This document shows, piece after piece, positions 1,179 through 46,478 of a stretch of DNA of 64,000 nucleotides (position 1 is the stretch's first letter; each line of letters begins with the position of its first letter). The stretch comes from Mustelus asterias (lineage: Eukaryota). The stretch covers positions 77,562,001-77,626,000 of the forward strand of contig NC_135811.1 of assembly GCF_964213995.1 (NCBI RefSeq), in the 5' to 3' direction. Position numbers and translations under genes: made by a program. The notes under the pieces are model-generated. The model saw only the letters and a program-made list of their open reading frames with translations. It did no database searches and had not been told where the DNA came from.

Positions 1179-1310
1179 CATTTGATTGAGTTTGCTGAGT
1201 GTGTGTTTGTTGAGTACTTGCTGTAACTGCAGCCTCTCGCAGCCCAGACTGAGGGTCCCGGTCAAGAAGAGCGACACCATCCAAAATCTCCAAATCCTCG
1301 CCAAAGCCAT
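1179..1310 (-). CDS. IFN1: Distal first exon (signal peptide + N-terminus) of a type I IFN copy whose body lies left of the window
   Basis: ATG at 1310; 44 codons MALARIWRFWMVSLFLTGTLSLGCERLQLQQVLNKHTLSKLNQM, then phase-0 GTGAGT donor. Confidence 0.75.
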
Positions 1311-2443: not shown

Positions 2444-2818
2444 CATAGAATCCTAGAGTGCAGAAGGAGGCTATTCGGCCCAAAGCGTCTTCTCGCCGAC
2501 CACAATCCCACCCTATTCCGTAACCCCACATATTTACCCTGCTACTCGCCTTGACACTCGGGTTAATTCAGCACGGCCAATCCATCGAACCTACATATCT
2601 TTGGACTGTGAGGGGAAACCGGAGCACCCGGAGGAAACCCACGCAGACGCGGGGAGAATGTGCAAACTCCACACATTGAACATAGAACAGTACAGCACAG
2701 AACAGGCCCTTCGGCCCACGATGTTGTGCCGAGCACACAGTGAGCCGCGGCTGGAATTGAACCCGTGTCCCTGGTGCTGTGAGGCAGCAGTGCTAAGCAC
2801 TGTGCCACCATGCCGCCC
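2444..2818 (-). mobile_element. HE1-like tRNA-derived (V-)SINE with a nested short CR1 3' tail (~2675-2732)
   Basis: Minus strand reads GGGCGGCATGGTGGCACAGTG...GGGTTCAATTCC (A/B boxes)...TGTGGAGTTTGCACATTCTCCCC core...TTCTATG tail. Confidence 0.85.
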
Positions 2819-3064
2819 CTTTCTGCAGACCGGAGACACAATGCAATTTTCAATAATGCTGACAGGAATAAACTAATGGTAAATAAAACTGTCGGAATTG
2901 TAAAGGAGGGTCAGGAATGTCGAGGAAGAATTTTACAAACAACATTAGCCAGAAACATGCCCGGAAAGAACAAGACCTATGGCAGCATGTCCACCTTCAC
3001 CCGGTAAAAATCTCCGCTCCATTCACAGATACCTGGGACCAATTTAATTTCTTTAATGCTTTCA

Positions 3065-3470
3065 TGAGATATGAGCGACTCTGCAGGGCATCATTTGTTG
3101 CTCATTCCTAATTGCCCCGCAGACGGTGATGGTGAGCCGTTTGTTTTTTACTTGCTGCTGTCCTTGTGAAGGAAATAAACCTATAGGAGTGTTGGGAAGA
3201 GATTTCCAGGATGTTTATCCAGAAAGAGTGAAGGAATGGTGATGTGGTCCCGAGTCGGCAAGCTGGGTGGCTTGAAGGTGAACTTGCAGGTTGTGTTCTT
3301 AATATGCGTTTGCTATTTTTGATCTTCTAGAGGGTAGAGGTGGTGGATTTGGAAGGTGCTGTTGAAGGAGCCTGAGTGGGTTGCTGCAGGGAATCTTGTA
3401 GATGGGACACACTGCTGCCACTGTGCGGCGGTGGTGCGGAAGTCAATGTTTAAGTTCGTGAAAGGAGTGC
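3065..3470 (-). mobile_element. Old degenerate LINE-like repeat shared by units (related short copies ~11950-12140, ~14440-14800)
   Basis: Recurring motif (A/G)TTTGTTGC(T/C)CAT(T/C)CCTAATTG appears at three positions per unit; no intact ORF. Confidence 0.45.
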
Positions 3471-4281
3471 AGACTTCCGGGTATAGATATTATACAATGA
3501 GTGGAGATTTCATGCTATGTAGAAATTGAAGACAATTGTACAGCTGTTTCTTTATCCTCACTTTTCACCCTTTCCGCCTCCACCACCCTTACCGAAATTG
3601 AGAGGTTATTGCAAAACTTTCTGCTCCAATTTAATTGCCAATTAATAAATGTGACGTGAAGCAGCACAACGGGACGGTATATACAAATTCATTTAAAAAA
3701 ATACATTAAACTGTTAATTTATGCACTTCTGCTTTTATTTGGATGCAGAATAACTCATTCACGATATCTGTTGACCCAAACCATAGATATTTTAATGAAC
3801 TTATCAGTTTACCCTCTGTTAGAATCCTGCTTTAAAATGACTGAAAATGAGCTTTAAAAAGACAGGTCCATTTTCTGCTGAATCTGGGGTGCAATATTTA
3901 TTTTCTTTTCAAATTCAAAAGTTACATTGCCAATCACTTCATCACAGGTCTATTGCTGTCCTCACACCAAAATGACTCAATTTTATTTCTGGAGCCTTAT
4001 TGAAGGCCTGTAAACAATTTCAATGGTGAATAATTTACCCGGGGTTAGCCAGTTTCGTGTGGGCCCAGTTTTCAGTATAATTGTTTCACAAAAGGCTTAC
4101 ATCCATGTGACACCCTCACTGGTCACAGAATATCTCAAGCATTTCACAGCTGATGGAGTGGCTTTGAGGTACATTGACTGTTGTAATATAGGAAACACAT
4201 GAGCCAATTTATGCTTCATACTCCCACAAACAGCACTCTGATAACAGACAGAGAACCTGGTTTAATGATATTGATTGTGGG

Positions 4282-4947
4282 TGTAAAGGGGAAAATACAA
4301 GGGGGTCACACTTTAAAATGGCAATACAAGAAAGCACACTCTAAAGTGGCTGCCTGGCACACACAGGGTTAACTGGGAAAGAAGCCGGAAAAGCAGACAC
4401 AGGCTCCCGCTGTTCAGAAATAACGTCAAGCCAAAATCCTAACAGACAAGCCACTTCCAAAGTACAGACAGTGACTCATAGCAAACAAGCACCTCAGGAA
4501 GCCAAAGCCAAGGGTCAAACATCTTTTAAGATAAGGAAACCCCTAAACAAAGAGCCTAGATTAACGTTACAGGAACGCGGGAAATATGAATGCGAGGGAA
4601 CCGATTAGCACCTGAACAAGACGAAACTAGCCATTGATAGACACAGACATAAGGAGATGTACCCATTCATAAAATGCTAAATGTCTATACCTGTTTGTAC
4701 TCTTGTAAACATGAGGAAATGTACCCATTCATAAAATGTTAAATACTTGTACTCACTTAAACAATGTGATAATGTTCGAATCACTGGTATACCCATTGTG
4801 TAAAGGGTAGAAAAATGAACCGCTCCCGACATACTATTGAGAGAAGGTTTGCTACAGACCATGTGCCTTGTCTCCACGGAGTTCCGTTTAATAAATCGTA
4901 TTTTCTGAATCTCGAAGTCTGACTACTCGTGGATTTTTCCCACAACA
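4282..4947 (+). repeat. 5' LTR (666 bp)
   Basis: Starts TGTAAAGGGG, ends CCCACAACA; AATAAA near 4890; direct repeat of 10522-11214; TATA position reads TAGAAAA at 4808. Confidence 0.95.
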
Positions 4948-4949
4948 AA

Positions 4950-4967
4950 TGGCGTAGTCGGCTCGGA
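4950..4967 (+). promoter_or_regulatory. Primer binding site, tRNA-Ser-like
   Basis: TGGCGTAGTCGGC, 2 nt after the LTR, matches the first 13 nt of the complement of the vertebrate tRNA-Ser 3' end (TGGCGTAGTCGGCAGGAT). Confidence 0.8.
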
Positions 4968-5548
4968 TCCTATTACTGGTGAGACCGATTGGCCACGGTC
5001 GCAACCGGGGTAGAGATCGCGGAATCTGTGACAGTCGGACTGGATCGGAAAATACGGTTTATAAGGGGGAAATATTTGTACTGTGTATTTGTGATAGTAT
5101 TTGTTATAGTGATAAGTACTAACTGCTGATAGGAATAAATAACTGTGATTTGTGCTGATCGACAAAAAGGACCAGGTAGTGCCTGTCTCAAAACCTCTGC
5201 CTTAGACTGGCTATTAAGAGCAGAAATCTGCCACGTGAAGGTCAGGAATTGAAGTGAGTGAGAGACACCAAGGGCACTAAAGGATTGTGAAGCACAAAAG
5301 GGCAGAAGTCGGTTTAACATCACCCTCTGTAGTGGCGAACAGACGCAGAGGTGCCAGCTGATTGCATGAATGTATTGAAAAGTTGGGAACTGTACTGTCA
5401 ATGCGGTGAAAAGCGGGGCGGAACAGGAGTTTGATCAACTCTGACCTAAACCGGAATCCGGTGGAGAAGCACATTGCCGAAGTGGTAATCGTGGAAGCCG
5501 TGAGTATAACTTAAAACCCTGTAATGGCAGTAAAACACGGTGTGAGAA

Positions 5549-5695
5549 TAGCAATAGTGGCCGGGGTAGTGAAGTCCCTATGGTAGTTAACACACTTTGC
5601 TAAGAGTAGTAATAGTGGCCGGGGGTAGTGAAGTCCCTACGGTAGTTAGCACACTTTACGAAAGAATAATCGTGGCCGGGGTTAGTGAAATCTGC
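5549..5695 (+). repeat. ~59-bp tandem repeat (about 2.5 copies) in the ERV leader
   Basis: AATAGTGGCCGGGG(G)TAGTGAAGTCCCTA(T/C)GGTAGTTA(A/G)CACACTTT twice, then a partial diverged third copy. Confidence 0.8.
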
Positions 5696-5698
5696 GAA

Positions 5699-6962
5699 AT
5701 GGCAGATAGTGAAGTTAAAAGGGGATCTGCAGGTTCCCTGATTGAAATCTACATGATGTGGAGATGCCGGCGTTGGACTGGGGTAAACACAGTAAGAAGT
5801 TTAACAACACCAGGTTAAAGTCCAACAGGTTTATTTGGTAGCAAAAGCCACACAAGCTTTCGAAGCTCAAAGCTTCGAGCTTCGAAAGCTTGTGTGGCTT
5901 TTGCTACCAAATAAACCTGTTGGACTTTAACCTGGTGTTGTTAAACTTCTTACTGAAATCTACATGACAGACAGGAAGGAGTTAATAAAGAGAATGCAAA
6001 AGGATGGCTGGGATACTTCTCAAACCTTAGAGCAGCAGAGAAAGTGGATAGATAAAGTAAAAAGAAACAGAACGAAGAAAATAGGAATAATGTTAACACA
6101 TCAGTTAGCAGGTCTAATTGAACAAACAATTGCCTCTACAAGGAAATGGAGAGAGGACAAAGAAAGAATTAGAGAACTAGAATCCCAAGTGAGGGAATTG
6201 GAAAAACGAAATCAGGTTTTAGAAAGGCAAGGGGGAGGAGAAACTGATCCTCTACCTTCTTATGAGTCTACCCAGCAAGGGCCAACGGCACCCTCAGAAG
6301 AGTGGGAACAGCTGGAACACAACTTAGCGCCCATAACTAGAGGGGGGACAGCAGCGCGACCAAAGGCAAATTATAAACCCTTTATCCCAGGTGAGAGACA
6401 GCAGATAATGGCTTCCCTGGGCAAACTACAAACTAGAAGCGCGAACACTACATTCTGGGAAGAATTAGACACAATCTGGGTAGGACATCAATTACACCTA
6501 AGAGACGTACACCAGCTGGTCAGGGCAGCCTGTCCAGCGGATAAGTGGAGGCAGGTAGCAGGGGGACCCGTTGCCCCTATAGAACAGGATTATAATGGGG
6601 GACGGTGGACACATGTAATCCCCCTAACAGCAGAAATAGATGCCCAACAGGCACCCTTCTTACAGTTTATAGAAGAAATTCAGAGGGTCTTAGGGAATGC
6701 TCCCACTAACTGGAGCAGAATTACTACCACAAAGCAGCTAAAAGGAGAAGGAGCCTCTGAGTACGGGGAACGATTGTTCCGAATATACCAAGAGTGCTCA
6801 GGACATGGGAATCCAGGGCGAGGAGATCGAGCGTTCATCCAGGCTTTTAAGGATGGACTCTCTAGTTCTCACCAGGTCATCCTAAAAATGGGAGTGATTA
6901 TGTCCCAAGATTACGATGAATTGGTAGAATGGGCTAGTGGCATACACCCTGGAGATGGATAG
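5699..6962 (+). pseudogene. gag: Retroviral Gag, interrupted at 5757-5967 and apparently 3'-truncated
   Basis: Removing the 211-bp insert joins MADSEVKRGSAGSLIEIYM to TDRKELIKR (ORF 5964-6962). Contains coiled coil, LPSY and PTAP late-domain motifs, capsid MHR-like QLKGEGASEYGERL; no CCHC knuckle before the stop. Confidence 0.85.
5757..5967. mobile_element. Palindromic Penelope-terminus insertion with 14-bp target duplication
   Basis: 79-bp perfect inverted arms 5790-5868 / 5877-5955; TGAAATCTACATGA at 5743-5756 and 5954-5967; arm sequence matches Penelope ends at ~20397 and ~63440. Confidence 0.9.
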
Positions 6963-8354
6963 GAGAGATCTTAGTTTTTGTATTTCAGTGTGTTTGTGAG
7001 ATCTGGTAGCTTGTCGAATGTAGGTGGTTGTTGTTGTAATTAGATTGAGAGCAGGGAGCTGGAGAAGCCTCTTTGTTCCTGTGGAATGTTTGCTGCAGGC
7101 AGTGGGTGCAGTACATTGCACCTTGGTTTAGCCTCAGGGGGGCTGGGAGAGTGTTAAAACTGTTAAAGATTAAAGTGATAGGATTTCTTGAATTTACTTC
7201 TGTTCTGAGTCAATTACAGTTTGGAAGAAAGAAGAATAAAAGCGACCTGTCTTAATCAATGTTCTGTATTCTCTTTGAATGTTTTACACTCATCCCAGTT
7301 TGAAATGATAAGTTTGAATGAAAAAGGATGTGCTGTGGAATGACTTTTGGAAGCTTCCATGTGTGTGTGTGTGTGTTTAAACAAAGTGCTTGCGTGGATG
7401 CTTTGTTGTTGTTTGCTTTAATGTTTTAATGTTAAGAAAGAATTTAAACCTTGGAAAGAAGCATGTGCTCTTTCCTTTGTCTTGAAGTAGAAATTATAAG
7501 AGTTAGTTGAGGAGTTAAGAGAAGAAAATAAGTTATTTTGTGGAAAGGTAGAAAAGCAGGAACAAAAGACTGAGGTCTATGAGTCAGTTTAAAGTATATC
7601 AAGTCAGTGAAATACAGTATTAATCGCAGAATATCGCGATTTACGAACGTCAGATAGTTTAGTATTCTGAACTAGTTAAAATTATGTACTGCCGTCGGAA
7701 TTTCATGAGCCATCAAGGTTCAAGGTTTGCCAAATATAAAAACACTGCAAAGCTTAAAATCTAGCCAGTTAAGAAACCAAAATGTTCCTAATCAAATAAC
7801 TGGTATGTATTGTACCTACTTTGATTTTGATTCGGCGCCTGTTACTTTTCCTAGAGTGCGAGGGTTTCGATCTGGAGCTCAGTTTAAAAATGGAAACGGC
7901 TTGAATTAAAAGGGTTTGGATATCACGGTTACGATGTGTAAAGTGGTATGATACAACTGCCGCTTGATTATTGATATTATACAGTATAGCACTGCCATAT
8001 AGACACAAGAATAACATCAAATCCTGAAAAGCCTTAACCAACTTTGTATGATATATTCATATACTATATTGTGTATTGATAAAAACATAATTATTTTGTG
8101 AAGTACTGTGGTGCAGCGCTTGCACGCAAACAAATGATCAAATTAGAGATAAGGTAAGAGTACTCATATAAAGATCGGAGCTGTATGGCATGTGATTTTA
8201 ATGGGGAAAGCGATGTCTTTTGATAAGATTACATACAAATGAATGGATGTCCAACTGCAGCCAAAAAAGGCCAGTACAAAGTGTTATTTATTTCACACTA
8301 AGCTTGCTATGGAAGGGGGATATATAGTTAAAATGTATAATGCACGAGCTAAAG

Positions 8355-8827
8355 ACATACAAACATCAGGGAGAAGGTGGACAGAGGTATTGCCCACTAG
8401 TTTAAAGAAATTAAGAGCTACCACAAACCGGACAACCGGATTAACCCCTTATGAGCTAATGACAGGACGGGCGATGCAATTACCAGAAAGCATCATAACA
8501 GGTGGGACCGATGTCGGTCCACTAAAAGATAAAATCAAGAGATACGTTCTGGACCTGAGCACCCAGCTAAAAGGGATGCGCAAATTGGTAAAAGACAATC
8601 AGGAAATAAAAGACGCAGAGAGAGAGCTTGAAATGCTCCCTGACGTCCCAACAGTGGGAAGTCGCGTCCTAGTAAAAACACTACCCGACAAACCAGGGTT
8701 TGCACCAAAGTGGAATGGGCCACATGAAATTATAATTAGTGGGGACACCTGTGCCTGTATAGACATAAGAGGGAAAGGTGCCTGGAAGCACTGGACGCAG
8801 CTGAAATTACACAAAGGAGATAAGTAG
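8355..8827 (+). pseudogene. pol: Integrase C-terminal remnant of pol
   Basis: WTEVLP..LRATTNRTTGLTPYELMTGR and VGSRVLVK..APKWNGPH (GPY/F-type) within ORF 8243-8827; no protease, RT, RNase H or DDE core upstream. Confidence 0.88.
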
Positions 8828-8964
8828 CTAAATTGATGAACTAACAGAACTGCTTTCCTCGACACAGGCAAAGACTGCAAGCAAGAGCCGGCGTGCGCGG
8901 GTTAATAAATGAAATAACTGTAAAAAATTGAATTGTAGTGTTAAGTTTTATAACTGTTGCGAAT

Positions 8965-10464
8965 ATGTATGTAATCGCGTATGTAATTGTATTATTTTGC
9001 GTTGTGGCAACTGTAAATCTGACTGGGCTAGAAGATAACTTGTTTTACAAAGCTCACATACATTTACACGGGAATCGGACTGTATGTTACCCGTTAACCC
9101 AATCTGTAGAAGCCCTATTTGTAGCCACCCCTGGGTGGACCCCTCATGACTTATATACTGTAGATACATCAGAGACACCCTGTAAGGGACAAATTGGCAA
9201 ATATAAAAGAGGTTTACAGGGGAGATGTGTGGGACTTGTAAACCCCACAAATCCTACATGCGAGGGGTCCCAAAAGGAGGGAGGAAAAGCTTGCCCAGAT
9301 ACTGCAAGCTATCCGCTTTGTTTCACGGGGCAGGGATGGGGATGTGCCAATGCCTTAGTCCCTAAGAATGATTCTTGTGTACAGACACAGTGTGTCCGTC
9401 AACATTGTCGGATTAACAAGGGACAGATAAATAACTTGTATTTGTGACGAACGGAAATGTTTAAATATAACCGCGGGAAGACAGCTTATTTGCGGGCAAT
9501 GTAATGGAACTCACGTAAGCTCAGCCAAATGGACATACCCCTTTGATACTTACCAGGTGGTGGGATCAAACGGGAAGCCAAATAAACTGAACAATTGGCA
9601 GTATGAGCAAACTCATAATCAGGACACTAAATGTTACCGGGCTAAGAAGGGGTATGTATTCCTCTTCAATGGTACCTACATGACAGAAACACCAAACCTC
9701 CCAGACCGTTTTGCGGAAGGAACAATCGGGCCACTGACTGTTCCATGCCCTCAGAAGGGGTACATTCGGAGGAGAATAGTAACCCGGGCTATTAGCAGGG
9801 AATTCTGCGCTGACTGGGAAGCCCCGGGTACACTGGGATCCTCACTGGGGTATGGGTTCCTCGGAGCTTTATCTCTCGGGGGTCAGCCGGGGTAATTGGA
9901 GCAAAGAATAGAAACCATATTGTTTGTGGACTAACAATCCTGGGAAACAGCACTTCAAAAGCATTGGAGGCTGTTAACCAAGAAATGGCTGAATTAAGAT
10001 TGTATGCTCAGCAGACACGATACGCAGTGGACTACCAGTTAGCACAACAAGGGGGAGTATGTTCAATCATAGGCAACAAATGCATAACCCATGTCACAGA
10101 TGAGTCTTACAATATTACACAGGTCATCAATGACATCAGGACGCAACTTGATAACTTTAGACAGGGACCCAAAAGAGGAGGTAGTTGGCTGGCTTGGCTG
10201 GTGGGAGAATCCTGGGAATCGTACCTGTTACATGGGTTGATCATACTCATTGTCATTATACTTGTCTGTTGTCTGACTGTGGGATGCCTTAAAGCCTGTT
10301 CTAAAATAATGTTGACAAGAATTGTGCCAGGAGCCAGTGTGTACATCGAAGAAGAGCCCCTAATGAAGATCCCCGAAGACGTCAGAAGAAATGAAGATAC
10401 TGGAAGAAATAAAGACATCAAAAGAAGCAAAGAAGGAGAGAAGAATGAAGACCTGTATATGTGA
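8965..10464 (+). pseudogene. env: Retroviral Env with two frameshifts (~9428-9431 and G-run 9878-9882)
   Basis: Signal peptide MYVIAYVIVLFCVVA, Cys-rich SU, basic cluster RRRIVTR, hydrophobic fusion segment, QTRYAVDYQLAQQGGVC-x6-C, membrane anchor LLHGLIILIVIILV, cytoplasmic tail. Confidence 0.92.
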
Positions 10465-10509
10465 ACGTATGATTGTTGGTCTGAGGATTGTCCAAGCTAT
10501 AATCCGACC

Positions 10510-10521
10510 AAAAGGAGGGAC
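10510..10521 (+). other. Polypurine tract
   Basis: AAAAGGAGGGAC immediately before the 3' LTR. Confidence 0.85.
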
Positions 10522-11214
10522 TGTAAAGGGGAAAATACAAGGGGGGCATACTTTACAGAAAATACAAGGGGGGCACACTTTAAAATGGCAATACAAGAAA
10601 GCACACTCTAAAATGGCTGCCTGGCACACACAGGGTTAACTGGGAAAGAAGCCAGAAAAGCAGACACAGGCTCCCGCTGTTCAGAAATAACGTCAAGCCA
10701 AAATCCTAACAGACAAGCCACTTCCAAAGTACAGACAGTGACTCATAGCAAACAAACAACTCAGGAAGCCAAAGCCAAGGGTCAAACATCTTTTAAGATA
10801 AGGAAACCCCTAAACAAAGAGCCTAGATTAACGTTACAGGAACGCGGGAAATATGAATGCGAGGGAACCGATTAGCACCTGAACAAGACGAAACTAGCCA
10901 TTGATAGACACAGACATAAGGAGATGTACACATTCATAAAATGCTAAATGTCTATGCCTGTTTGTACTCTTGTAAACACGAGGAAATGTACCCATTCATA
11001 AAATATTAAATACTTGTACTCACTTAAACAATGTGATAATGTTCAAATCACCGGGATACCCATTGTGTAAAGGGTATAAAAATGAACCGCTCCCGACATA
11101 CTATTGAGAGAAAGTTTGCTACAGACCATGTGCCTTGTCTCCACGGAGCTCCGTTTAATAAATCGTATTTTCTGAATCTCGAAGTCTGACTACTAGTGGA
11201 TTTTTCCCACAACA
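10522..11214 (+). repeat. 3' LTR (693 bp)
   Basis: Copy of the 5' LTR plus a 27-bp tandem duplication near its start; TATAAAA at 11075, AATAAA at 11157. Confidence 0.95.
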
Positions 11215-12201
11215 GATATTTTCATGAACTTATCAGTTTACCCTCTGTTAGAATCCTGCTTTAAAATGACTGAAAATGACCTTTAAAAAGACAGGTCCAT
11301 TTTCTGGTGAATCTGGGGTGCAATATTTATTTTATTTTCAAATTCACAAGTTACATTCCCCATCAATCTTTCACAGGACTATTGCTGTCCTCACACCAAA
11401 ATGACTCAATTTTGTTCTGGAGCCTTATTGAAGGACAGTAAATAATTTCAATGGTGAACAATTTACCCTGGGGTGAGGCCAGTTTTGTGTTGGCCCCGTT
11501 TTCAGTATAATTGTTTTGCAAAAAGGCTTACATCCATGTGACACCCTCACTGGTCACAGAATATCTCAAAGCATTTGACAGCTGATGGAGTGCCTTTGAG
11601 GTACATTGACTGTTGTAATATAGGAAACACATGAGCCAATTTGCGCTTCATACTCCCACAAACAGCACTCTGATAGCGAACAGAGAACCTGGTTTAATGA
11701 TATTGATTGTGGGTAATTATCAGGTTGGCATTAGTGGATTGCTCCTCCTCCTTGAGTTCTTTTGTAATGTAATCATTATTTAACATGCAGATTTCCAGAA
11801 GGTGTCAACCATGATACCACATGAGAGATTTTCATCCTGACATTCCACATATTCTCTTTCCTACCCATAGACTGATGACTCCTCAGCCCATTGACTGATT
11901 TCCCAATCTGTACTCTGCAGGTTTTAAAAGTTTGTTCACATGGGTTGCATGTCACGGGAATGGTCGGTGTTTGTTGCCCATCCCTAATTGCCCTTAAAGG
12001 AGATCGCATGCTTGGCCACTTTAGAGGGCAGTTGAAAGGTAATCACATTGTTGTGGTCCTACAGCCATGTGCAGGCCAGAACAGGTATCGAGGGCAGATT
12101 TCCTTTCCTTACAGACATGAGTGAATCAGATGGGTTTTTGGGCAAATTCACAGAAATAAATAAGAAACATAATTTCAACAAATTTGTATTATTAAAAACA
12201 A

Positions 12202-12713
12202 TTTATTGTAAATATTAAATACATATAAACATGGTTTCAGTATAAACATTGCCTGCGTGGAAAAACATTGTCTATTCCATAACTCTAAATAAATATCAAT
12301 AACTTAACATTTTTAAACTCATTTTACACATTGTGGAAACTGTCACAGTTTGTTACACAAAGACATCACAACAATAAATATCAATAAATTAGAGTAGCTG
12401 AAATTGGTTGAAATGTTGTCCATTTAGGAGGGCACAAATGGAAAGGTCAACATGGCTCTGGGTTTATTGGTTTGCAAACCCACTTCCTGAAAGCCTGACA
12501 GTACATTCCAAATCAGAGGGAAATAACACAGCCGTAAATATCAATAAATAAAATAACAATAAAAATAAATAACCTAACAAGCCACCCATTGTTCTCCCAT
12601 CATTAATGTAAAGTATAAAATTCATTACAAGTATCCATAAATAAATATAGTTTTAAATGAAAATTCTTTCAAATAAATATTCATTGTTCCCAGTCTGTAA
12701 TAGAAAAGTTTTT
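12202..12713 (-). promoter_or_regulatory. IFN 3' UTR with AU-rich elements and poly(A) signal (repeated for each locus)
   Basis: Multiple ATTTA/TTATTTATT on the minus strand; AATAAA (plus-strand TTTATT) at 12202-12207. Confidence 0.65.
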
Positions 12714-15700
12714 TCACTTTCTTCTCCTGATTTGTGCCATTACGGAAGTCATCTGTTGTAATCGGGCCCTGGTCTCAGTGCGGATTATTTCCCAGGCACA
12801 TTGACTGAATTCCTGAAAAAGAAAATTATTCAGGAAAATGGATTAAAGAATGAATAGATTCCAAGAGGGTGAATTAATGTACATGCCAATAACCACACAG
12901 TCAATCATCAATGGTCCTACCTCCTGATTGAGGAACTTTTCCAGTTTCCTGAAGTAATTGTGAATGGTGAAGTTTCTCCTCATCTTGTGCTCTGACTCCT
13001 GTTTCCTGACACATTCTTCCAGCTCACTGAGCTGCCGATCCAGGATCAGTCGGAAATGTTCCACCTTGTCTCGGGCCCATGTGACTGAGCCCAGATTCAT
13101 GCTGTAGATCTTATTGATGTGTCGCAGAGTTTGATGGACAATCTGGATCCTGTCCTGTGTCTATACAAAATATACACAATGTAATTAGAGAGACTCCATT
13201 CCCCATAAGGGATCGTATGATATAGGCCACAAACAAATAAGGCTAAAAATGTTCAAATGGAAAATGTTCACCTTCAGCGTCTATGTGTATTGGAATCCCC
13301 ACATGGCAGGTTGGTTAAGAAGGTTAAGGCTCATGGGATAGAAGGAGAAGTGGCTAGATGGGTGGAGAACTGGCTTGGCCATAGGAGACAGAGGGTAGTG
13401 GTCGAAGGGTCTTTTTCCGCCTGGAGGTCTGTGACCAGTGGTGTTCCGCAGGGCTCTGTACTGGGACCTCTGCTATTTGTGATATAAATGATTTGGAAGA
13501 AGGTGTAACTGGTGAAATCAGCAAGTTTGCGGATGGCACAAAGATGGCTGGACTTGCGGATAGCGAAGAGCATTGTCGGGCAATACAGCAGGATATAGAT
13601 AGGCTGGAAAATTGGGCGGAGAGGTGGCAGATGGAGTTTAATCCGGATAAATGCGAAGTGATGCATTTTGGAAGAAATAATGTAGGGAGGATTTATACAA
13701 TAAATGGCAGATTCATCAGGAGTATAGAAACACAGAGGGACCTAGGTGTGCAAGTCCACAAATCCTTGAAGGTGGCAACACAGGTGGAGAAGGTCGTGAA
13801 GAAGGCAGGTGGTATGGTTGCCTTTATAGACTATAAAAGCTGGAGTCTGATGATGCAGCTGTATAGAATGCTGGTTAGGCCACATTTGGACTACTGCGTC
13901 CAGTTCTGGTCGCCGCACTACCAGAAGGACGTGGAGGCGTTAGAGAGAGTGCAGAGAAGGTTTACGAGGATGTTGCCTGGTATGGAGGGTCTTAGCTATG
14001 AGGAGAGATTGGGTAAACTGGGGTTGTTCTCCCTGGAAAGACGGAGAATGAGGGGCAATCTAATAGAGGTGTACAAGATTATGAAGGGGATAGATAGGGT
14101 GAACGGTGGGAAGCTTTTTCCCAGAGCAGAAGTGACGTTCACGACTGGTCACGGGCTCAAGGTGAGAGGGGCGAAGTATAACTCAGGTATTAGAGGGATG
14201 TTTTTAACACAGAGGGTGGTGGGGGCCTGGAATGCGCTGCCAAGTAGGGTGGTGGAGGCAGGCACGCTGACATCGTTTAAGACTTACCTGGATAATCACA
14301 TGAGCAGCCTGGGAATGGAGGGATATAAACGATTGGTCTAGTTGGACCAAGGAGCGGCACAGGCTTGGAGGGCCGAAGGGCCTGTTTCCTGTGCTGTACT
14401 GTTCTTTGTTCTTTAACTCAAAGATTGCTATTTCTTTCTTCATGGAATGTAAACATCACCGGCAAAGCCAGAATTTGTTGCTCATCCCTAATTGTATTTG
14501 ACATGAATATTACAGGTAATATTTAAGAGTCAACCACATGATTGTGGGTTTGCAGTCACTTGTAGGCCAGACCGAGTAAGGACAGCTGGTTTTCTTTCCT
14601 TGAAGGTTATTAATGAACCACATGGATCTTTACAACAACCTATGACAGTCCCATTGCTGGGAATAGCTATATTTGCAGATTTATGAATTGGGCATGAATT
14701 TGATTGGCTGCCCTGGTGGAAATTGAACTAAAGTACCCAGAGCATAACACTAGGCCTCGGGATTATTAGTCCAGTGGCATGAGCACTGTGCCACTATTAC
14801 CTCCTAAATATTATTGGGTCAATAATAATTGCAAATAAGCAATGGGAGTTTTAAAAGTGGAGATGTGTTGGATATAAATTGGGTTCCTTTCGATGAAGCA
14901 GAGAAGCCAGAGGCCATCCGATTTACAATAAAAATTAGACTCTTTGTTCAGTATAGAACCAAGCTGAATGCAGACCATATAAACCAAAATTACGAAAAGA
15001 AATGAGGGGTGAATACGGTGCATGAGAATTAATGAGAGGTATCGTGAAGGGGAAGCTAAAAATGGGTCATAAGAATATAAAGAATGTGGAGATGCTGCTT
15101 TTGGACTGGGGAGGAGAAGAGTCCAAGACGTCAATTTCAAATCAATGATTTGAACTTGGCTTCAGTTCAGAAGGAGATGCTTCAAATGTTACAGTAAAGG
15201 AAGAAGTAGTAAAGAAATTGGATGGGATAAAAATCGATAAAAAGGGGGTATCACTGTGGCCGTGCAACTGGGAATGTTGCTGCTTGTCCTCAATGCACCT
15301 GTCAAAAGTCCAGGATCAAAGAGGGACGACATTTCTAAGGTGAGTAAGACTTGGATGGAAGTGCTGGAGAGGTGAGGATTGTCAGAGATATGGGAACATG
15401 TCAGAAGCATAAGGTTGTTGTTCTTCCATCACATCTTGCACTGCACCAGATGCCGGTCATTTGACCAGTCCAGTACTGCCTTTGAATGAAAGACACACTC
15501 ACAACTCCTCCTGACCCCACCTACAATACTAGCAACCTGGAAGCAAACCGACAAGGTGACTTTCTGGATTCCCACTTGCTGAATCCCCTGATTCCGACTG
15601 GTTGTGTAAAGTTGTCAGTGGGGATGAGGCCCTTATGTGGGCATTAAATCTATGTCTCCCAGACCGTCTAACATCAGTTAATGGGAACAGTTTTCCCTTG

Positions 15701-16614
15701 ACTACCTTTCGGAAACAGCCATAATTCTGAAATATTCTGCACGAAGGCTGTATCCCAAAGGTGTAATGTACATTGTTAACGCTAAGGATATTTCAATTCC
15801 ATTGAGTCACATAAGAGTCACATAAGAGTGGGACATGCTGCATGGAGGCATGTTGAATTTCATTGCACTTTCTATAATTTTGAAGTTGAAATGTTTTGTA
15901 ATGCTCTTCCGCAAATGTTATGAATAATTCATATTTTTGGGGTGAAAGTTAGTGATCAGAAGAATGAAAGTGTAAGGGGCAGGGAGATACAGAAAATAAA
16001 ATAGTTCGCGGATATCTGATCATTAGAGCAAGCGGGCTTATTGGAGAAGAAGGAATGGTTAGAGAGACCGACATAATTTCAGGGGGTTCGAGACACAGAG
16101 ATAGTAAGTGCGCTCACAGTGATATTACTGAGTGAGTTAGATACAGAGTGAAATACAATGACAGAGAATTCTGTCATTGTCACAATGGTTGGAAATCACA
16201 CGATTGAAAATTCTTGCAGTTGCCAGTTCCGATCAGATTGTTGATGTAATTTTCTATAAAAACTCTGTCTAAAAGAAATGAACCGAGATTTTACTCACCT
16301 CTAATCCCTTCGAAAGTTTCACCAGGTCCAAGGGCTTGGATTTCAGGAAGTGTCTCTGTTTTATACAGTGTTGGGGAAAGGAGCCACCCTGAGAGGAGAA
16401 AAAATATAATTAATTATAAATCCCCAGAAATGTCTCCTGATTTGACATTTCACACGCTGCTCAGAATGCAGCTTTAACTCACCATTTGATTGAGTTTGCT
16501 GAGTGTGTGTGTGTTGAGAACTTGCTGTAACTGCAGCCTCTCGCAGCCCAGACTGAGGGTCCCGGACAAGAAGAGCGACACCATCCAACATCTCCAAATC
16601 CTCGACAAAGCCAT
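12714..16614 (-). CDS. IFN1: Type I interferon, locus A, intact 4-exon gene (186 aa)
   Basis: Exons 16614-16483 (MALSRIW..SLG/CERLQ..NQM), 16388-16299 (GGSFPQHCIKQ..GLE), 13160-12921 (TQDRIQ..LEEC..YFRKLEKFLNQE), 12812-12714 (EFSQCAWEIIR..RRRK*); all GT-AG phase-0 introns; four Cys. Confidence 0.93.
13298..14417 (+). mobile_element. 5'-truncated CR1-clade (HER1-like) LINE in intron 2 of locus A
   Basis: RT motifs SGVPQGSVLGPLLF, KFADGTK, LVRPHLDYCVQFWSP; (GTTCTTT)n tail; absent at this site in other units. Confidence 0.93.
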
Positions 16615-20390: not shown

Positions 20391-20396
20391 CTTTCT

Positions 20397-21066
20397 GTAA
20401 GAAGTTTAACAACACCAGGTTAAAGTCCAAAAGGTTTATATGGTAGCAAAAGCCACAAGCTTTTGGAGCCTTAAGCCCCTTCCTCAGGTGAGTGGGAATT
20501 CTGTTCACAAACAGGGCATATAAAGACACAAACTCAATTTACAGAATAGTGGTTGGAATGCGAATACTTACAGCTAATCAAGTCTTTAAGATACAAACAA
20601 TGTGAGTGGAGAGAGCATCAAGACAGGCTAAAGTTATGTGTATTGTCTCCAGACCGGACAGCCAGTGAGACTCTGCAGGTCCAGGCAAGCTGTGGGGATT
20701 ACAGATAGTGTGACATGAACCCAATGTCCCGGTTGAGGCCGTCCTCATGTGTGCGGAATTTGGCTATCAGTTACTGCTCAGCAACTCTGCGCCGTCGTGT
20801 GTCGTGAAGGCCGCCTTGGAGAACGCTTACCCAAATATCAGCGGCCGAATGCCCGTGACCGCTGAAGTGCTCCCCAACAGGAAGAGAACAGTCTTGCCTG
20901 GTGATTGTCGAGCGGTGTTCATTCATCCGTTGTCGCAGCGTCTGCATGGTTTCCCCAATGTACCATGCGTCGGGACATCCTTTCCTGCAGCGTATCAGGT
21001 AGACAAAGTTGGCCGAGTTGCATGAGTTTGTACTGTGCACCGGGTGGATGGTGTTCTCACGTGAGT
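20397..21066 (-). mobile_element. Penelope-like element 3' part (GIY-YIG endonuclease)
   Basis: ORF 20771-21040 VYLIRCRKGCPDAWYIGETMQTLRQRMNEHR..VGEHF; terminal sequence shared with 5790 and 63440. Confidence 0.92.
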
Positions 21067-23280: not shown

Positions 23281-26200
23281 TCAGTTTCTTCTCCTGATTT
23301 GTGCCATTACGGAAGTCATCTGTTGTAATCGGGCCCTGGTCTCAGTGCGGATTATTTCCCAGGCACATTCACTGAATTTCTGAAAAAGAAAATTATTCAG
23401 GAAAATGGATTACAGAATGAATAGATTCCAAGAGAGTGAATTAATGTACATGCAAATAACCACACAGTCAATCATCAATGGTCCTACCTCCTGATTGAGA
23501 AACTTTTCCAGTTTCCTGAAGTAATTGTGAATGGTGAAGTTTCTCCTCATCTTGTGCTCTGACTCCTGTTTCCTGACACATTCTTCCAGCTCACTGAGCT
23601 GCCGATCCAGGATCAGCCGGAAATGTTCTACCTTGTCTCGGGCCCATGTGACTGAGCCCAGATTCATGCTGTAGATCTTGTTGATGTGTCGCAGAGTTTG
23701 ATGGACAATCTGGATCCTGTCCTGTGTCTATACAAAATATACACAATGTCATGAGAGAGATTCCATTCCCCATAAGGCATAGTATGATATAGGCCATAAA
23801 CAAATAAGGCTAAAAATGTTCAAATGGAAAATGTTCACCTTCAGCGACTTAAAAGGGGATCAGGCCTATGTATATTGAAATCAAACATTGCTATTTCTTC
23901 CTACATAGCATGTGGGCATCACCGGCAAAGCCAGAATTTGTTGCTCATCCCTAATTGTATTTGACATGAATATTTCAGGTAACATTTAAGAGTCAACCAC
24001 ATGATTGTGGGTTTGCAGTCACTTGTAGGCCAGACCGAGTAAGGAGAGCAAGTTTTCTTTCCTTAAAGGTCATGAATGAACCACATGGATCTTTACAAGA
24101 ATCTTTGCCAGTCCCATTGCTGAGATTAGCTGTATTTCCAGGTTTATGAATTGAGCATGAATTCGACTGGCTGCCCTGGTGGAAATTGAACAAAAGTTCC
24201 CAGAGCATAACACTAGGCCTCGGGATTATTAGTCCAGTGGCATGAGCACTGTGCCACTATTACCTCCTAAACATTATTGGGTCAATAATAATTGCAAATA
24301 ACCAATGGTAGTTTTTAAAAATTGGAGATGTTTTGGATACAAATTGGACTCCTTTCGATGAAGCAGAGAGGCCAGAGGTCATCCGATTTACAATAAAATT
24401 TAGACTCTTTGTTCAGTATAGAACCAAGCTGAATGTAGACGATACACACCAAAATTATCAAAAGAAATGAAGGGTGTATGCTACAACTGTACAGGACCTT
24501 GGTGAGACCACATTTGGAATATTGTGTGCAGTTCTGGTCACCTCACTATAAGAAGGATGTGGAAGCGCTGGAAAGAGTGCAGAGGAGATTTACCAGGATG
24601 CTGCCTGGTTTGGAGGGTAGGTCATATGAGGAAAGGTTGAGGGAGCTAGGGCTGTTCTCTCTGGAGCCGAGGAGGCTGAGGGGAGACTTAATAGAGGTGT
24701 ATAAAATGATGAAGGGGATAGATAGAGTGAACGTTCAAAGACTATTTCCTCGGGTGGATGGAGCTATTACAAGGGGGCATAACTATAGGGTTCGTGGTGG
24801 GAGATACAGGACGGATATCAGAGGTAGGTTCTTTACGCAGAGAGTGGTTGGGGTGTGGAATGGACTGCCTGCAGTGATAGTGGAGTCAGACACTTTAGAA
24901 ACATTTAAGCGGTTATTGGATAGGCACATGGAGCACACCAGGATGATAGGGAGTGGGATAGCTTGATCTTGGTTTCAGATAAAGCTCGGCACAACATCGT
25001 GGGCCGAAGGGCCTGTTCTGTGCTGTACTGTTCTATGTTCTATGTTCTATGTGTATACGATGCATGAGAATTAATGCCAGGTATCGTAAAGGTGAAGCTA
25101 AAAATGGGTCATAAGAATATAAAGAATGTGGAGATGCCGGGATTGGACAAGGGAGGAGAAGATACGAGTCCAAGGTGTTTATTTGAAAACCGTAATTTGA
25201 ATTTGGCTCCAGTTGAGAAGGAGATGCTTCAAATGTTACAGTAAAGGGAGAAGTCGTCAAGAAATTGGATGGGATAAAAATAGATAAAAAGGGGGTATCA
25301 CTGTAGCGGTGAAACAGGGAATGTTGCTGCTTGTCCTCAATGCACCTGTCAAAATTCCAGGATCAAAGAGGGATGACATTTCTCAGGTGAATAAGTCTTG
25401 GATGGAAGGCCTGGAGAGGTGAGGATTGTAGGAGATATGGGAAATTGGTCAGAAGCATAAGGTTGTTGTTCTTCCAACACATCTTGCACTGCAATGATGC
25501 CGGGTCACTTGACCAGTCCAGTACTGCCTTTGAATGAGAGACATACCCACAATTCCACCTGACCCCACCGACAATACTAGCAACCTGGAAGCAAACCGAA
25601 AACATGACTTTCTGGATTCCCACTTGCCGAATCCCCTGATTCCTACTGGTTGTGTAAAGATGTCAGTGGGGATAAGGCCCTTATATGGGCATTACATCTG
25701 TGTCTCCAAGACCCTCTAACATCAGTTAATGGGAACAGTTTTCCCTTGACTGCCTTTCGGAAACAGCCATAATCCTGAAATATTCTGCACTCAGGCTGTT
25801 TCCCAAAGATGTAATGTACATTGTTAACGCAAGGGATATTTCAATTCCATTGAGTCACATAAGAGTCACATAAGAGTCACACGCTGCATGGAGGCATGTT
25901 GAATTTCATTGCACTTTCTGTCATTTTGAAGTTGAAATGTTTTGTAATACTCTTCGGCAAATGTTATGAATAATTCATATTTTTGTGGTGAAAGTTAGTG
26001 ATCAGAAGAATGAAAGTGTAAGGGACAGGGAGATACAGAAAATACAATAGTTCGCGGGCATCTGATCATTCGAACAAGAGGGCTTATTGGAGAGGAAGGA
26101 ATGGTTCGAGGGACGGATATAATTTCAGGGGGTTCGAGAAAGAGATAGTAAGTGCGGTAACAGTGAAATTACGGAGTGAGTTAGATACAGAGTGAAATAC

Positions 26201-26658
26201 AATGACAGAGAATTCTGCCATTGTCACAATGGGTGGAAATCACACGATTGAAAATTCTTGCAGTTGCCAGTTCCGATCAGATTGTTGATCTAACTTTCTA
26301 TAAAACCTCTGTCTAAATAAAATGAACCGAGATTTTACTCACCTCTAATCCCTTCGAAAGTTTCACCAGGTCCAAGGGCTTGGATTTCAGGAAGTGTCTC
26401 TGTTTTATACAGTGTTGGGGAAAGGAGCCACCCTGAGAGGAGAAAAAATATAATTAATTATAAATCCCCAGAAATGTCTCCTGATTTGACATTTCACACG
26501 CTGCTCAGAATGCAGCTTTAACTCACCATTTGATTGAGTTTGCTGAGTGTGTGTGTGTTGAGAACTTGCTGTAACTGCAGCCTCTCATAGCCCAGACTGA
26601 GGGTCCCGCACAAGAAGAGCGACACCATCCAGAATCTCCAAATACTCGCCAATGCCAT
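23281..26658 (-). CDS. IFN1: Type I interferon, locus B; open frame but Cys24>Tyr in the proximal exon 1
   Basis: Exons 26658-26527 (..SLGYERL..), 26432-26343, 23727-23488, 23379-23281 (KFSECAWEIIR..RRRN*); GT-AG phase 0. Confidence 0.9.
24478..25050 (+). mobile_element. CR1-clade LINE 3' fragment in intron 2 of locus B
   Basis: ORF 24478-24966 LYRTLVRPHLEYCVQFWSP..FFTQRVVGVWNGLP; (GTTCTAT)n tail; GTGTAT flanking repeat. Confidence 0.92.
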
Positions 26659-28242
26659 GACCAACCGAGTCAGAGTGAAACCCCGAACTGAGGATAAGAC
26701 ACCGACCGGATCCGGGTTCAACTCCGAACAATTATTTTCAAACGAATGAAAATCTAAATAGTTCCGCTTCTGAACACCGAGTGAACCGCTGAGCTGTTCA
26801 GTTCTCTTTCCGTGTGTCTGTCTCTCTCTCTCTGTGTATCCGTGTATATATGTGGACTGTGCTGGGAGGGACTGTCCCTGCCATGCTGTCTCAGGTGCTG
26901 GCGATTACATTGGAAAAGTGAAATCTGGTAGCGGGAGTTTTGGAAGTTCTTCAGGAGAGGAATAGTTAATCTGCTCCCTGTCTGAGGTAAGGAATCGGAA
27001 AGCTGGAGTTTCCGGAACCAGGGACTGAAAGATCCCCGAGAGAAAAATCACAAACAGCGCTCGGTTACAGCTCAAAGTTCCAACAATCGGAATCAATATT
27101 ATTAATATCCATTTTGTAAAAGCAGATTATTCCCTTCAAATTGGATTCACTTTAAGGGTACAATAAATTTGCGGTTCGTCAGATTGTTGGAGTTTGAGGC
27201 TGTTCTTCTTGAGTTCTCTGACCGAAGGCGGGCCCAACCCATTTTCCCACAAGAGCTCCATAAGGTGATTATTACATTCAGAAATGACACTCAATGTGCC
27301 CGTGACACAGGTAATCTCTCCCTCCTCCTTGTCGCTCTGTCCGCAGCCTTTGACATGGGCGCGCAGACCATCATCATTCAACTCTCTCCCCCACGGTGCA
27401 ACTGATGGGGAGCACTCTCTCTGCCTCTCATTCTTACTGAAGTCATTGTACCCTGAGAATATCCAGAATCGCATCCTTTCTCCCCCACACTCCACCACGC
27501 ACCTCACCTTTCAGCCTCTGCTGTCCATGAGGATATCTCCCTGCTCCCTTTTCTAATTCTCATCTCCACGCTGCCCCATGGGGACATCACTCACCATTTA
27601 CCCATCACCCCTGTGCTGGTTGAATTATGTTGGCTCCTGCTTCAGGAATGCCTTGATTTTAAAAATCTCACCCAAATTTTCAAACTCCGCCAGTCCCTCA
27701 TCCCTCCCTATCCCTGTAATCACCTCCAGCCGCGAATCCCTACGAGATACCTGCGCTGCTCCAATTCTTTCCCCGCGCCCCCCCCCCACCCCCCCTGAAT
27801 TCCCCATTTTCATTCACCCACGATGGGTGGTGTCTCTTCAGTTGCTCAACCCTCAACCTCTGTAATTTCTGCCCTAAACCTCACCGCCTCCCTTTACCCC
27901 ATTAAAACGCTCCTTAAAATCAACTTCATTCATCAAGTTATTGCTCACCTGCCTCAGTATCTCCTCGTCTGACTGACTATCCAATGTTTCTGGATAACAC
28001 GCCTGTGAATCACTTTGAACCATCAATCTCTCTCTATAAAGATGAGTGCTTGTTACTGATGGGCTGTCTCTGATTTCCCCCCTCTCAGGCTCACATTCCC
28101 CTTTATCCTTCACTCAGTCCCCTTCTCCTCAATGTCTGCTTTCTATTTCTCTCTCCGATCAGAGTTGCTCCTTCAAACAGATTCAGATTCAATCTCTCCC
28201 GGTCCCTCCCTCCCCTCAATATCATTCCCAGTTTCAACTCAC

Positions 28243-28374
28243 CATTTGATTGAGTTTGCTGAGTGTGTGTTTGTTGAGAACTTGCTGTAACTGCAGCCTC
28301 TCGCAGCCCAGACTGAGGGTACCGGACAAGAAGAGCGACACCATCCAAAATCTCCAAATCCTCGACAAAGCCAT
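28243..28374 (-). CDS. IFN1: Distal duplicate first exon, locus B (Cys24 retained)
   Basis: ATG, 44 codons, SLGCERL, GTGAGT donor. Confidence 0.75.
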
Positions 28375-29165
28375 GACCAACCGGGTCAGAGGGAAAGTCC
28401 GATGTGGAAGAGGAGAAACCGGCGGCTTTGGTGGTTCAGCGGCGAGAACGGTTCTTGCGAAGAGAATTCAAGTCGGGAAGTGGAATTGGAGCTTGTGGTC
28501 CGGGAGCGAGCGCCTGTGTTGCCGAATGGTGTGTGTGGATTCTGCTGCGAGCTGGCATTGGCACTGCCAGGCTGCCCGCTTTAATGTGTGCCCATTACAT
28601 TGCAAAAGTGAAAATGAGCTGCAGGGGTTTTGGGAGAGCTGCGGGAGACCAGTAGTTTGTGCGGTTTCTGTGTGAGGTCAGGAATGGGAAAGCTGGAGAC
28701 TCCCGAAGCAGCGAGTGAGAAATCCCCGGGAGAAAATCACAAGCAGCGCTCGGTTGCAGCTCAGTGTTGTGTGGGCTTCACATCACCCGGGGGGCACTAA
28801 GGTACTGCAGAGGTGGGCTCTGTATTGGGGGGCAGTGTGGACATGGATTGGTGTCTGCAAATGACCATCCGGATTACAGAGATACCGAGAGCGGCGCATT
28901 TTAGTGCGGTCATTCGGCCCCATTCCCTCTGATATCCCCGCTGTGTCCACATCGCGTTTGTCCTGTTAACCATTCCCAGCTTGAACATTGCAGAGAGACC
29001 GGCTCAGAGCCCAGGCTCGCCGCTTAATGGAGACTGACTCCGCTCCCATTGAGCTGCCCCACAATCTGCTCTTTAACTGCAAGAAGTTGCTCATTTCTCG
29101 CTTCTTTTCTGCAGCCATTTCCAGACTCTGACTGAGAGAATATTGAATCTGTTCCGATTCTGAGT

Positions 29166-29307
29166 GGGAAAGTGATCCCCGCTCCCTTTCCTTTCGCCCC
29201 GTTTGTTTCTCCTCTCTGTCCCGGGAAAGTGTCCGCCTCACTTTCTCTCTGGAAATGAGCCTTGTGTCAGTTTGTGCCGAAAGCGAAAGTGCCTCAGGGA
29301 AAGTGAG
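29166..29307. promoter_or_regulatory. IRF/ISRE cluster, locus B
   Basis: Same GAAAGTG x5 arrangement. Confidence 0.62.
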
Positions 29308-29510
29308 GCGTTTTGTCATTTCCGACAGTGGGGAGAGTTTGTGAAGAGAGCGGCTCACACTGAGAGGGCTGAGGGGAGGGGCTGCAAAAGGTTTTCTGAT
29401 ATCCGGGATTAACCCATGGGAATGGCACCGAATCCCTGTCAGATGCAACTGGGATCCGAATCTTCAGTCCGGGTGTCGGTGGGAGTGAGATCCCACAGAA
29501 CCAACTGTAT

Positions 29511-29885
29511 CATAGAATCCTAGAGCGCAGAAGGAGGCTATTCGGCCCAAAGCGTCTTCTCGCCGACCACAATCGCACCCTATTCCGTAACCCCACATAT
29601 TTACCCTGCTACTCGCCTTGACACTAGGATTAATTCAGCACGGCCAATCCATCGAACCTACATATCTTTGGACTGTGAGGGGAAACCGGAGCACCCGGAG
29701 GAAACCCACGCAGACGCGGGGAGAATGTGCAAACTCCACACATAGAACATAGAACAGTACAGCACAGAACAGGCCCTTCGGCCCACGATGTTGTGCCGAG
29801 CACACAGTGAGCCGAGGCTGGAATTGAACCCGTGTCCCTGGTGCTGTGAGGCAGCAGTGCTAAGCACTGTGCCACCATGCCGCCC
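29511..29885 (-). mobile_element. HE1-like SINE with nested CR1 tail
   Basis: Near-identical to 2444-2818. Confidence 0.85.
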
Positions 29886-32800: not shown

Positions 32801-34030
32801 GTCGCAGAGTTTGATGGACAATCTGGATCCTGTCCTGTGTCTATACAAAATATACACAATGCCATTAGAGATTCCATTCCCCATAAGGCATCGTATGATA
32901 TAGGCCATAAACAAATAAGGCTAAAAATGTTCAAATTAAAAATGTTCATCTTCAGCGACTTAAAAGGGGATCAGGCCTATGTGTATTGGAATCAAACATT
33001 GCTATTTCTTCCTACATAGCATGTGGTAATCACCTGCAAAACCAGAATTTGTTGCTCATCCCTAATTGTATTTGACATGAATATTTCAGGTAACATTTAA
33101 GAATCAACCACATGATTGTGGGTTTGCAGTCACTTGTCGGCCAGACCGAGTAAGGACAGAGGTTTTCTTTCCTTAAAGGTCATTAATGAACCAGATGGAC
33201 GTTTACAACAATCTATGACAGTCCCATTGCTGGAATTAGCTGTATTTCCAGATTTATGAATTGAGAATGAATTCAACTGGCTGCCCTGGTGGAAATTGAA
33301 CAAATGTGCCCACAGCCTAACACTAGGCCTCGGGATCATTAGTCCAGTGGCATGAGCACTGTGTCACTATCACCTCCTAAATATTATTTATTGGGTCAAT
33401 AATTATTGCAAATAAGCAATGGGAGTTTTTGAAAGTGGAGATGTTTTGGATACAAACTTGGCTCCTTTTATTGAAGCAGCGAGGCCAGAGGACATCCGAT
33501 TTACAATAAAAATTAGACTCTTTGTTCAGTATAGAACCAGGCTGAATGCAGACCATATACACAAAAATTATCAAAAGAAATTAGGAGTGAATACGATGCA
33601 TGAGAATTAATGAGAGGTATCGTAAGGAGGAAGCTAAAAATGGGTCATACTAACATAAAGATTGTGGAGATGGTGATGTTGGATGAGGGGGGAGAAAATA
33701 CAAGTCCAAGATGTTTATTTGAAATCAGTGATTTGAAATTGGCTCCAGTTGAGAAGGAGATGCTTCAAATGTTACAGTAAAGGGAGAAGTAGTCAAGAAA
33801 TTGGATGCGATAAAAATCGATAAAAAGGGGGTATCACTGTGGTGGTGAAACTGGGAATGTTGCTGCCTGTCCTCAATGCATCTGTCAAAAGTCCAGGATC
33901 AAAGAGGGATGACACTTCTCAGGTGAGTAAAACCTGGATGGAAGTCCTGGAGAGGTGAGGATTGTAGGCAATATGGGAAAATGGACAGAAACATAAGGTT
34001 GTTGTTCTTCCATCACATCTTGCACTGCAC

Positions 34031-45407: not shown

Positions 45408-45539
45408 CATTTGATTGAGTTTGCTGAGTGTGTGTTTGTTGAGAACTTGCTGTAACTGCAGCCTCTCGCAGCCCAGACTGAGGGTCCCGGTCAAGAAGAG
45501 CGACACCATCCAAAATCTCCAAATCCTCGCCAAAGCCAT
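45408..45539 (-). CDS. IFN1: Distal duplicate first exon, locus D
   Basis: ATG, 44 codons, GTGAGT donor. Confidence 0.75.
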
Positions 45540-46337: not shown

Positions 46338-46478
46338 GGGAAAGTGATCCCGCTCCTTTTCCTTTCGCCCCGTTTGTTTCTCCTCTCTGTCCCGGGAAAG
46401 TGTCCGCCTCACTTTCTCTCTGGAAATGAGCCTTGTGTCAGTTTGTGCCGAAAGCGAAAGTGCCTCAGGGAAAGTGAG
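46338..46478. promoter_or_regulatory. IRF/ISRE cluster, locus D
   Basis: Same GAAAGTG x5 arrangement. Confidence 0.62.

Follow-up and report, generated by a model that had tools for sequence, protein, structure and literature searches.

The stretch of DNA analysed here (the window) comprises 64,000 nucleotides of Mustelus asterias (NCBI RefSeq assembly GCF_964213995.1, contig NC_135811.1, positions 77,562,001 to 77,626,000 of the forward strand) and is, to judge from its sequence, a tandem type I interferon cluster of cartilaginous-fish type with the genes on the minus strand. One of the spacers of this array carries an endogenous retrovirus (ERV), a provirus bounded on both sides by a long terminal repeat (LTR), whose two ends are precise, which lacks a target-site duplication (TSD), and whose left and right flanks derive from different array units that are non-sister paralogs. 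Recombination between two proviruses that had inserted in different interferon units is the likeliest single reading of this arrangement, with a somewhat better than even chance of being right. The elements on which the argument is built are the following (positions are those of the window):

3786..4281, plus strand: left spacer copy, 496 bp, of the young unit group (with the units at 31 and 48 kb)
4282-11214, plus strand: provirus, 6,933 bp, TG...CA at both ends
4282-4947, plus strand: 5' LTR, 666 bp, TG...CA
10522-11214, plus strand: 3' LTR, 693 bp, TG...CA, carrying a tandem duplication of 27 bp at about 10531-10557
11215..11713, plus strand: right spacer copy, from a different, older paralogous unit, grouping with the units at 21 and 40 kb

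The original prediction on this DNA held that the provirus has no TSD, that about 495 bp of unit sequence appear on both of its sides, and that the LTRs differ by roughly 16 substitutions and a 27-bp duplication; all of this is borne out. The left junction (4281/4282) reads ...GATTGTGGG on the host side and TGTAAAGG on the proviral side, and the right junction (11214/11215) passes from CCCACAACA into host sequence GATATTTT, equivalent to position 3786, which gives an overlap of 496 bp. A TSD of 4-6 bp was sought at both ends of the provirus and none flanks the element. Both LTR ends are whole, and the overlap with host sequence is 1 base at each junction. Leaving out the provirus, this spacer measures 4,471 bp. 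Of the remaining five spacers, four are 3,936-4,023 bp long, and one, of 4,959 bp, carries other insertions. Between the LTRs there are exactly 16 substitutions (16/666, 2.4%) and one 27-bp tandem duplication, present in the 3' LTR only, whose two copies differ from each other at 2 sites. A likeness of 7 bases between the end of the left flank and the inverted LTR end was discarded as meaningless, the same word being found 7 times in one 9.2-kb unit.

The flanks had also been predicted to be copies of different subtypes, and an alignment of both to the units, followed by a tree, had been proposed as the check; the outcome agrees in full. The subtype motif of the left copy is that of the units at 31, 48 and 57 kb (u31, u48 and u57) and the motif of the right copy is that of the units at 21 and 40 kb (u21 and u40). 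The spacer tree was built from seven full copies (left, right, u21, u31, u40, u48 and u57; the partial copy at 62.5 kb was excluded), and it splits left, u31, u48 and u57 from right, u21 and u40 with support 98/98. A clade uniting left and right is rejected by the AU test (p=0.00086), which rules out a simple long TSD left untouched since insertion. Ten alignment columns unite right, u21 and u40, and no column of the spacer alignment is exclusive to left and right. In pairwise comparison the two flank copies differ by 30 substitutions and 6 gap columns, and in the multiple alignment at 33 of 495 positions (6.7%), which exceeds the divergence of the LTRs (33/495 against 16/666; Fisher p=0.0005); the copies are thus neither sisters nor as little diverged as the LTRs, as those of a long target duplication should be. 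The left copy differs at 10 of 496 positions from u48 and at 18 of 496 from u31 and u57. The right copy differs at 29 of 499 positions from u40, at 41 of 499 from u21 and at 38-44 from the four units besides u40; it is an old paralog of its own rather than a close twin of u21 or u40.

The same distinction extends beyond the overlap. The left arm (2734-4281, 1,548 bp) is 2.3-2.7% from u48 and u31 (36/1547 against u48), the right arm (11714-13282, 1,569 bp) is 5.6-7.2% from all four units compared, and each arm keeps one type over at least 1.5 kb. Type-diagnostic sites reach 4247 on the left, 34 bp from the junction, and on the right they start at the equivalent of 3851, 65 bp from the junction. 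Flanks from two loci together with two precise ends are what a recombinant (inter-element) provirus displays. A truncated or microhomology-joined end, which is usual in aberrant integration and yet not invariable, is absent here, both ends being whole with 1-base overlaps.

According to the favoured reading, normal integration would have placed two members of one abundant ERV family devoid of reverse transcriptase (RT), both pointing the same way, in spacers of two different interferon units, one at 4281 of a young-type unit and the other at the 3786-equivalent of an older unit; one or the other insert may have been no more than a solo LTR. A crossover at any point of the element that they share would then join the left flank of one insert to the right flank of the other. 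Both ends would be precise since integrase made each junction, the TSD partner of each would be lost, and the 496-bp overlap would reflect how far apart the two inserts lie in unit coordinates. From the precise ends on both sides it follows that integrase most likely made both junctions, or made one while the host made a clean second one. Whole units between the two sites would be lost, whereas the reciprocal product would gain them; of the two, a loss is the simpler assumption because the 52 kb to the right hold no second provirus. As the arms are non-allelic paralogs, whole interferon units have probably been lost or gained on this haplotype. The predicted change of interferon copy number would follow from this, as a loss or as a gain. 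The abundance of the family means that two hits in one array need no targeting, and the 27-bp duplication in one LTR, with 2 differences between its copies, weakly suits two source viruses.

Several observations weigh against this reading. For two inserts of the same orientation to lie no more than about 500 bp out of register, in a unit of 9 kb, is a coincidence of about 1 in 10, to be added to that of the double hit. The offset matches the long duplications produced by single faulty integrations (273 bp for XMRV, at 1 of 15 sites and with one end truncated, PMC2857682; 250 bp at 7p21.2 and 450 bp at 21q21.1 in HERV-K(HML-2), PMC4422153). Further points come from public sequencing runs, of which contigs from 4 of the 18 listed were compared with positions 3300-10521, runs with a small share being unused; the best runs share at most 0.52 of the words of the window, and their species may differ from that of the window. 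In these contigs a joint leading from 4947 to 3786 would stand for the right junction, and other joints would mark the parental junctions. The 15 joints listed (of 730) and the 24 loose ends listed (of 2,889), with 32 of 190,385 pieces, show nothing at the LTR ends and no parental junction that has a proper TSD; rows of an abundant hairpin element lying inside the provirus dominate among them. One contig (X17, record 18) fits 4129-4282 and then diverges, as a provirus-free unit, either a paralog or an empty allele, would do, and is uninformative. A weaker objection is that the LTRs, with a divergence of 2.4%, agree at each of the four listed LTR sites that vary within the family (4379, 4504, 4518 and 4540), which is faintly suggestive of one provirus. 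At the three of the 16 differing LTR sites that are listed (4387, 4489 and 4810) the family majority has the state of the 3' LTR, so that these changes are private to the 5' LTR and fit either history. The family states were read from the 40 substitution rows listed (of 949). The 27-bp duplication does not occur in the 12 indel rows listed (of 159), which carries no weight because it could stand in one of the others.

The original prediction was right that the flanks come from different units, and its two-provirus step is still the likeliest, but it overlooked aberrant single integration (PMC5041404, PMC2857682, PMC4422153). A single provirus could have entered by one faulty integration across two units: integrase would join one end in the young-type unit, the free end would prime host synthesis in the other unit, and homologous recombination would then close the gap, with whole units removed or added in the same event. 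Priming on nearby DNA followed by recombination has been described as a source of deletions and duplications (PMC5041404), a single insertion suffices, and both the low divergence of the LTRs and their shared subfamily states fit. In such cases, however, the host-joined end is often truncated and usually shares a homologous segment (PMC5041404), whereas here the ends are whole with 1-base overlaps; besides, the near-register offset remains a coincidence and the 27-bp difference between the LTRs must postdate the insertion. We regard this course as rather unlikely, and the same holds for its consequence, that one integration with intact ends in two units removed or added interferon genes in one step and not through later recombination; if it were true, the provirus would preserve in the germline a case in which integration itself altered how many antiviral genes there are. 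A genuine target duplication of 496 bp around one provirus, one whole arm of which was later replaced by unequal exchange or conversion with a paralogous unit, would on the other hand explain the small offset without any coincidence; the 250, 450 and 273 bp cases already cited (PMC4422153, PMC2857682) are precedents for its size, and the array does exchange sequence, u57 and u31 being mosaic. The replacement would have extended as far as the edge of the LTR, at which branch migration would come to a halt. It is nevertheless unlikely, for no column is exclusive to left and right, the exchange point is confined to the last 34 bp on the left or the first 65 bp on the right, and the arms are of a single type over at least 1.5 kb with no fine mosaic.

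It could also be that two separate proviruses exist in the array and that the assembler crossed between them. Tandem arrays with long repeats are prone to misjoins, and neither junction was seen among the contig joints and loose ends listed. However, the window contains no N and resolves units that are 2-7% apart, which suggests that long reads were used, the 6.9-kb element lies within the span of such reads, and two insertions in the array would still be required; a misjoin is therefore quite improbable. Least credible, and very improbable, is a normal insertion followed by an unrelated deletion whose breakpoint fell by chance at the LTR end. A deletion of about 3.5 kb independent of the provirus does exist at 62489/62490, and the LTR end loosely resembles the host sequence before 3786 (7 of 9 bases, 2 bases out of register), but it is very unlikely that chance would place a break precisely at the final LTR base, with an overlap of 1 base. 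The likelihoods given to recombination between two proviruses and to the first three of these alternatives are estimates from rough rates.

The provirus itself is intergenic, with the stop codon of one interferon gene (12714) on one side and the distal copy of exon 1 belonging to the next gene (1310) on the other. It has direct LTRs with TG...CA ends, a primer-binding site after the 5' LTR and a polypurine tract before the 3' LTR, as expected of an ERV. Its internal parts are as follows:

4950..4967, plus strand: primer-binding site, starting 2 bases past the 5' LTR
5743..5953, no strand assigned: hairpin element in the start of gag, 211 bp, flanked by a 14-bp direct repeat
5964..6962, plus strand: gag-like open reading frame (ORF), 332 aa
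6963..8242, plus strand: non-coding stretch at the place expected for protease, RT and RNase H, with no ORF longer than 95 aa
8243..8827, plus strand: integrase C-terminal remnant, 194 aa
8965..10464, plus strand: env in three frames, with breaks near 9440 and 9890 and a gamma-type transmembrane (TM) region
10510..10520, plus strand: polypurine tract, read from the sequence

The primer-binding site presumably corresponds to tRNA-Ser. The Atlas neighbours of the 332-aa ORF belong to Gag families (0.85-0.89) and suggest that it is gag-like; it gave no Pfam match at the cut-off, and a PDB sequence search returned just two chance-level hits. RT, protease and zinc-finger motifs, following generally known patterns, were searched in the six frames of the provirus and none was found. 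The integrase remnant has Atlas neighbours in rve / MLVIN_C clusters (0.94-0.95) and no Pfam match. In env, PF22307 is reached at 28.6 bits, above its cut-off of 27, and PF00429 at 19.8 bits, below its cut-off of 22.5; a Pfam search at E 0.001 gave nothing for 4 of 4 ORFs. The TM region of env and the MLVIN_C neighbours are suggestive of a class I (gamma/epsilon-like) provirus; the element has no RT. In the proviral leader (about 5550-5690) three degenerate tandem copies of a motif of about 55 bp were recognised by eye. The hairpin element has an inverted match at 5790-5955, a structure which we take to resemble that of Penelope-like elements. Its relatives stand near 20392-20469 and 63357-63445, and its summed contig depth reaches 8 million in run X15.

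Regarding the family to which the provirus belongs, contigs of all four runs cover the entire element except for the hairpin region (5742-5954), which the contigs of the four runs skip, and the depth over the non-coding stretch 6963-8242 is like that of the remainder. In run X15 the summed contig depth is 7,800-73,600 in the proviral bins (hairpin bin excluded) versus 87-656 in three flank bins, a measure that is not a copy number. These data point to an abundant, RT-less family, and the depth contrast indicates that it probably has hundreds of copies. The family as a whole appears to be without protease and RT, yet it keeps the gag-like ORF, the integrase tail and env, and would thus be a non-autonomous ERV family. 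A metagenome scan using the LTR pattern returned 0 loci. This provirus is the only one in the 64 kb, and the window holds no further proviral piece except copies of the hairpin element.

There is no evidence that this family targets the interferon cluster, and the repeated ERV insertion into it that was drawn in the original prediction would need no targeting: the family is abundant, there is one provirus in 64 kb and units free of proviruses (u57 and u31) are also mosaic. These mosaic units and the ERV-free deletion of about 3.5 kb imply that the array turns over by itself. At that deletion (62489/62490) the 566-equivalent is joined to the 4047-equivalent, and the distal exon-1 copy is gone from the last spacer. 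The segments 25725-32887 and 42925-50055 match over 7.2 kb at 95%, with an offset of 17.2 kb, which suggests a recent duplication of two units. The young units are 2.3-2.7% apart, about the divergence of the LTR pair (2.4%).

The array has a period of 8.1-10.6 kb across the window, with one four-exon type I interferon gene on the minus strand in each unit. Its identification relies on an interferon alpha/beta domain (exon 3 matches Pfam PF00143 at 44.4 bits versus a cut-off of 26.8 in a profile search), a signal-peptide exon and the tandem copies; the genes presumably also contain a CAWE-type motif. Both the form of the genes and the fact that runs labelled 'shark metagenome' contain part of the window point to a cartilaginous fish. 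Six interferon genes in the window have all four exons. In three of them (12.7-16.6, 23.3-26.7 and 41.5-43.8 kb) every exon is open, in two a frameshift disrupts the proximal exon 1 (35.8 and 53.0 kb), and the sixth, whose exon 3 (58931-59169) is broken by a stop codon and a 1-base gap, is likely a pseudogene. The features concerned are these:

12714..16614, minus strand: interferon gene nearest the provirus, four coding exons, all open
16614-16483, 16388-16299, 13160-12921 and 12812-12714, minus strand: coding exons of that gene
1179..1310, minus strand: distal exon-1 copy of the next interferon unit, left boundary of the provirus-bearing spacer
1310-1179, 18322-18191, 28374-28243, 37570-37439, 45539-45408 and 54741-54610, minus strand: distal exon-1 copies
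13544-14341 and 24478-24966: ORFs of LINE fragments

Between the stop codon of the nearest gene (12714) and the 3' LTR there are 1.5 kb. In every unit exon 1 occurs twice, a distal copy lying some 1.7 kb upstream of the proximal exon; the six distal copies all have an open frame and a GT donor, and the 300 bp upstream of them show 96-100% identity among units. The distal exon 1 may act as an alternative promoter and first exon rescuing the genes with a frameshifted proximal exon 1, because two genes (35.8 and 53.0 kb) combine a frameshifted proximal exon 1 with an intact distal one. Independent LINE reverse-transcriptase fragments are found in the long intron of two interferon genes (13283-14417 and 24478-25050).

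This provirus offers a clean and measurable example of how an ERV can lie at the breakpoint of a rearrangement among antiviral genes, in vertebrates that have been little studied; as its flanks are paralogs, the rival mechanisms lead to clearly distinct expectations. If recombination between two proviruses or a single faulty integration is true, retroviral insertions have contributed to the turnover of interferon genes in cartilaginous fish. The biological weight is modest, since it is a single event, no gene is broken and the array also rearranges without ERVs. A literature search, thin on subscription journals, found no report of an ERV-linked rearrangement of a cartilaginous-fish interferon locus in the accessible sources.

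Some known systems invite comparison. In the HERV15-mediated AZFa deletion, recombination from provirus to provirus deleted genes; the favoured reading of the window provirus resembles it in this step, but the AZFa flanks are unique sequence and not array units. HERV-K(C4), within the RCCX immune array, is a single insertion that duplications have copied along with the array, and the window provirus is likewise an ERV inside a tandem immune gene array. ETn, VL30 and MaLR are non-autonomous ERV families of high copy number in which pol is replaced by non-coding sequence; unlike them, the family described here keeps a gag-like ORF, an integrase tail and env. Hughes and Coffin reportedly described, in 2005, HERV-K(HML-2) proviruses with mismatched TSDs that arose by ectopic recombination. 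Like these, and like the plant LTR elements classed as 'without TSD', the window provirus is an intact two-LTR element with precise ends, no matching TSD and flanks of different origin; unlike in those cases, its flanks are both paralogous units of one array, which makes the offset measurable in unit coordinates.

In aberrant integration of HIV and ASLV, stretches of hundreds to thousands of bases are deleted or duplicated (PMC5041404), and the window provirus shares with such events, and with the XMRV and HERV-K cases, several hundred host bases on both sides. The copies in aberrant integrations start identical, however, and one viral end is often truncated, whereas here they are 6.7% apart and non-sister, and the ends are whole. 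TSD-less HERV-K insertions with truncation at both ends have been described (PMC3625200), unlike the window provirus. Mismatched TSDs are usually read as a product of recombination between proviruses (PMC6407205, PMC4422153), a rearrangement after insertion (PMC6407205). Proviruses without matching TSDs are, within the accessible literature, a known class in primates and plants, of which the window provirus is a new case.

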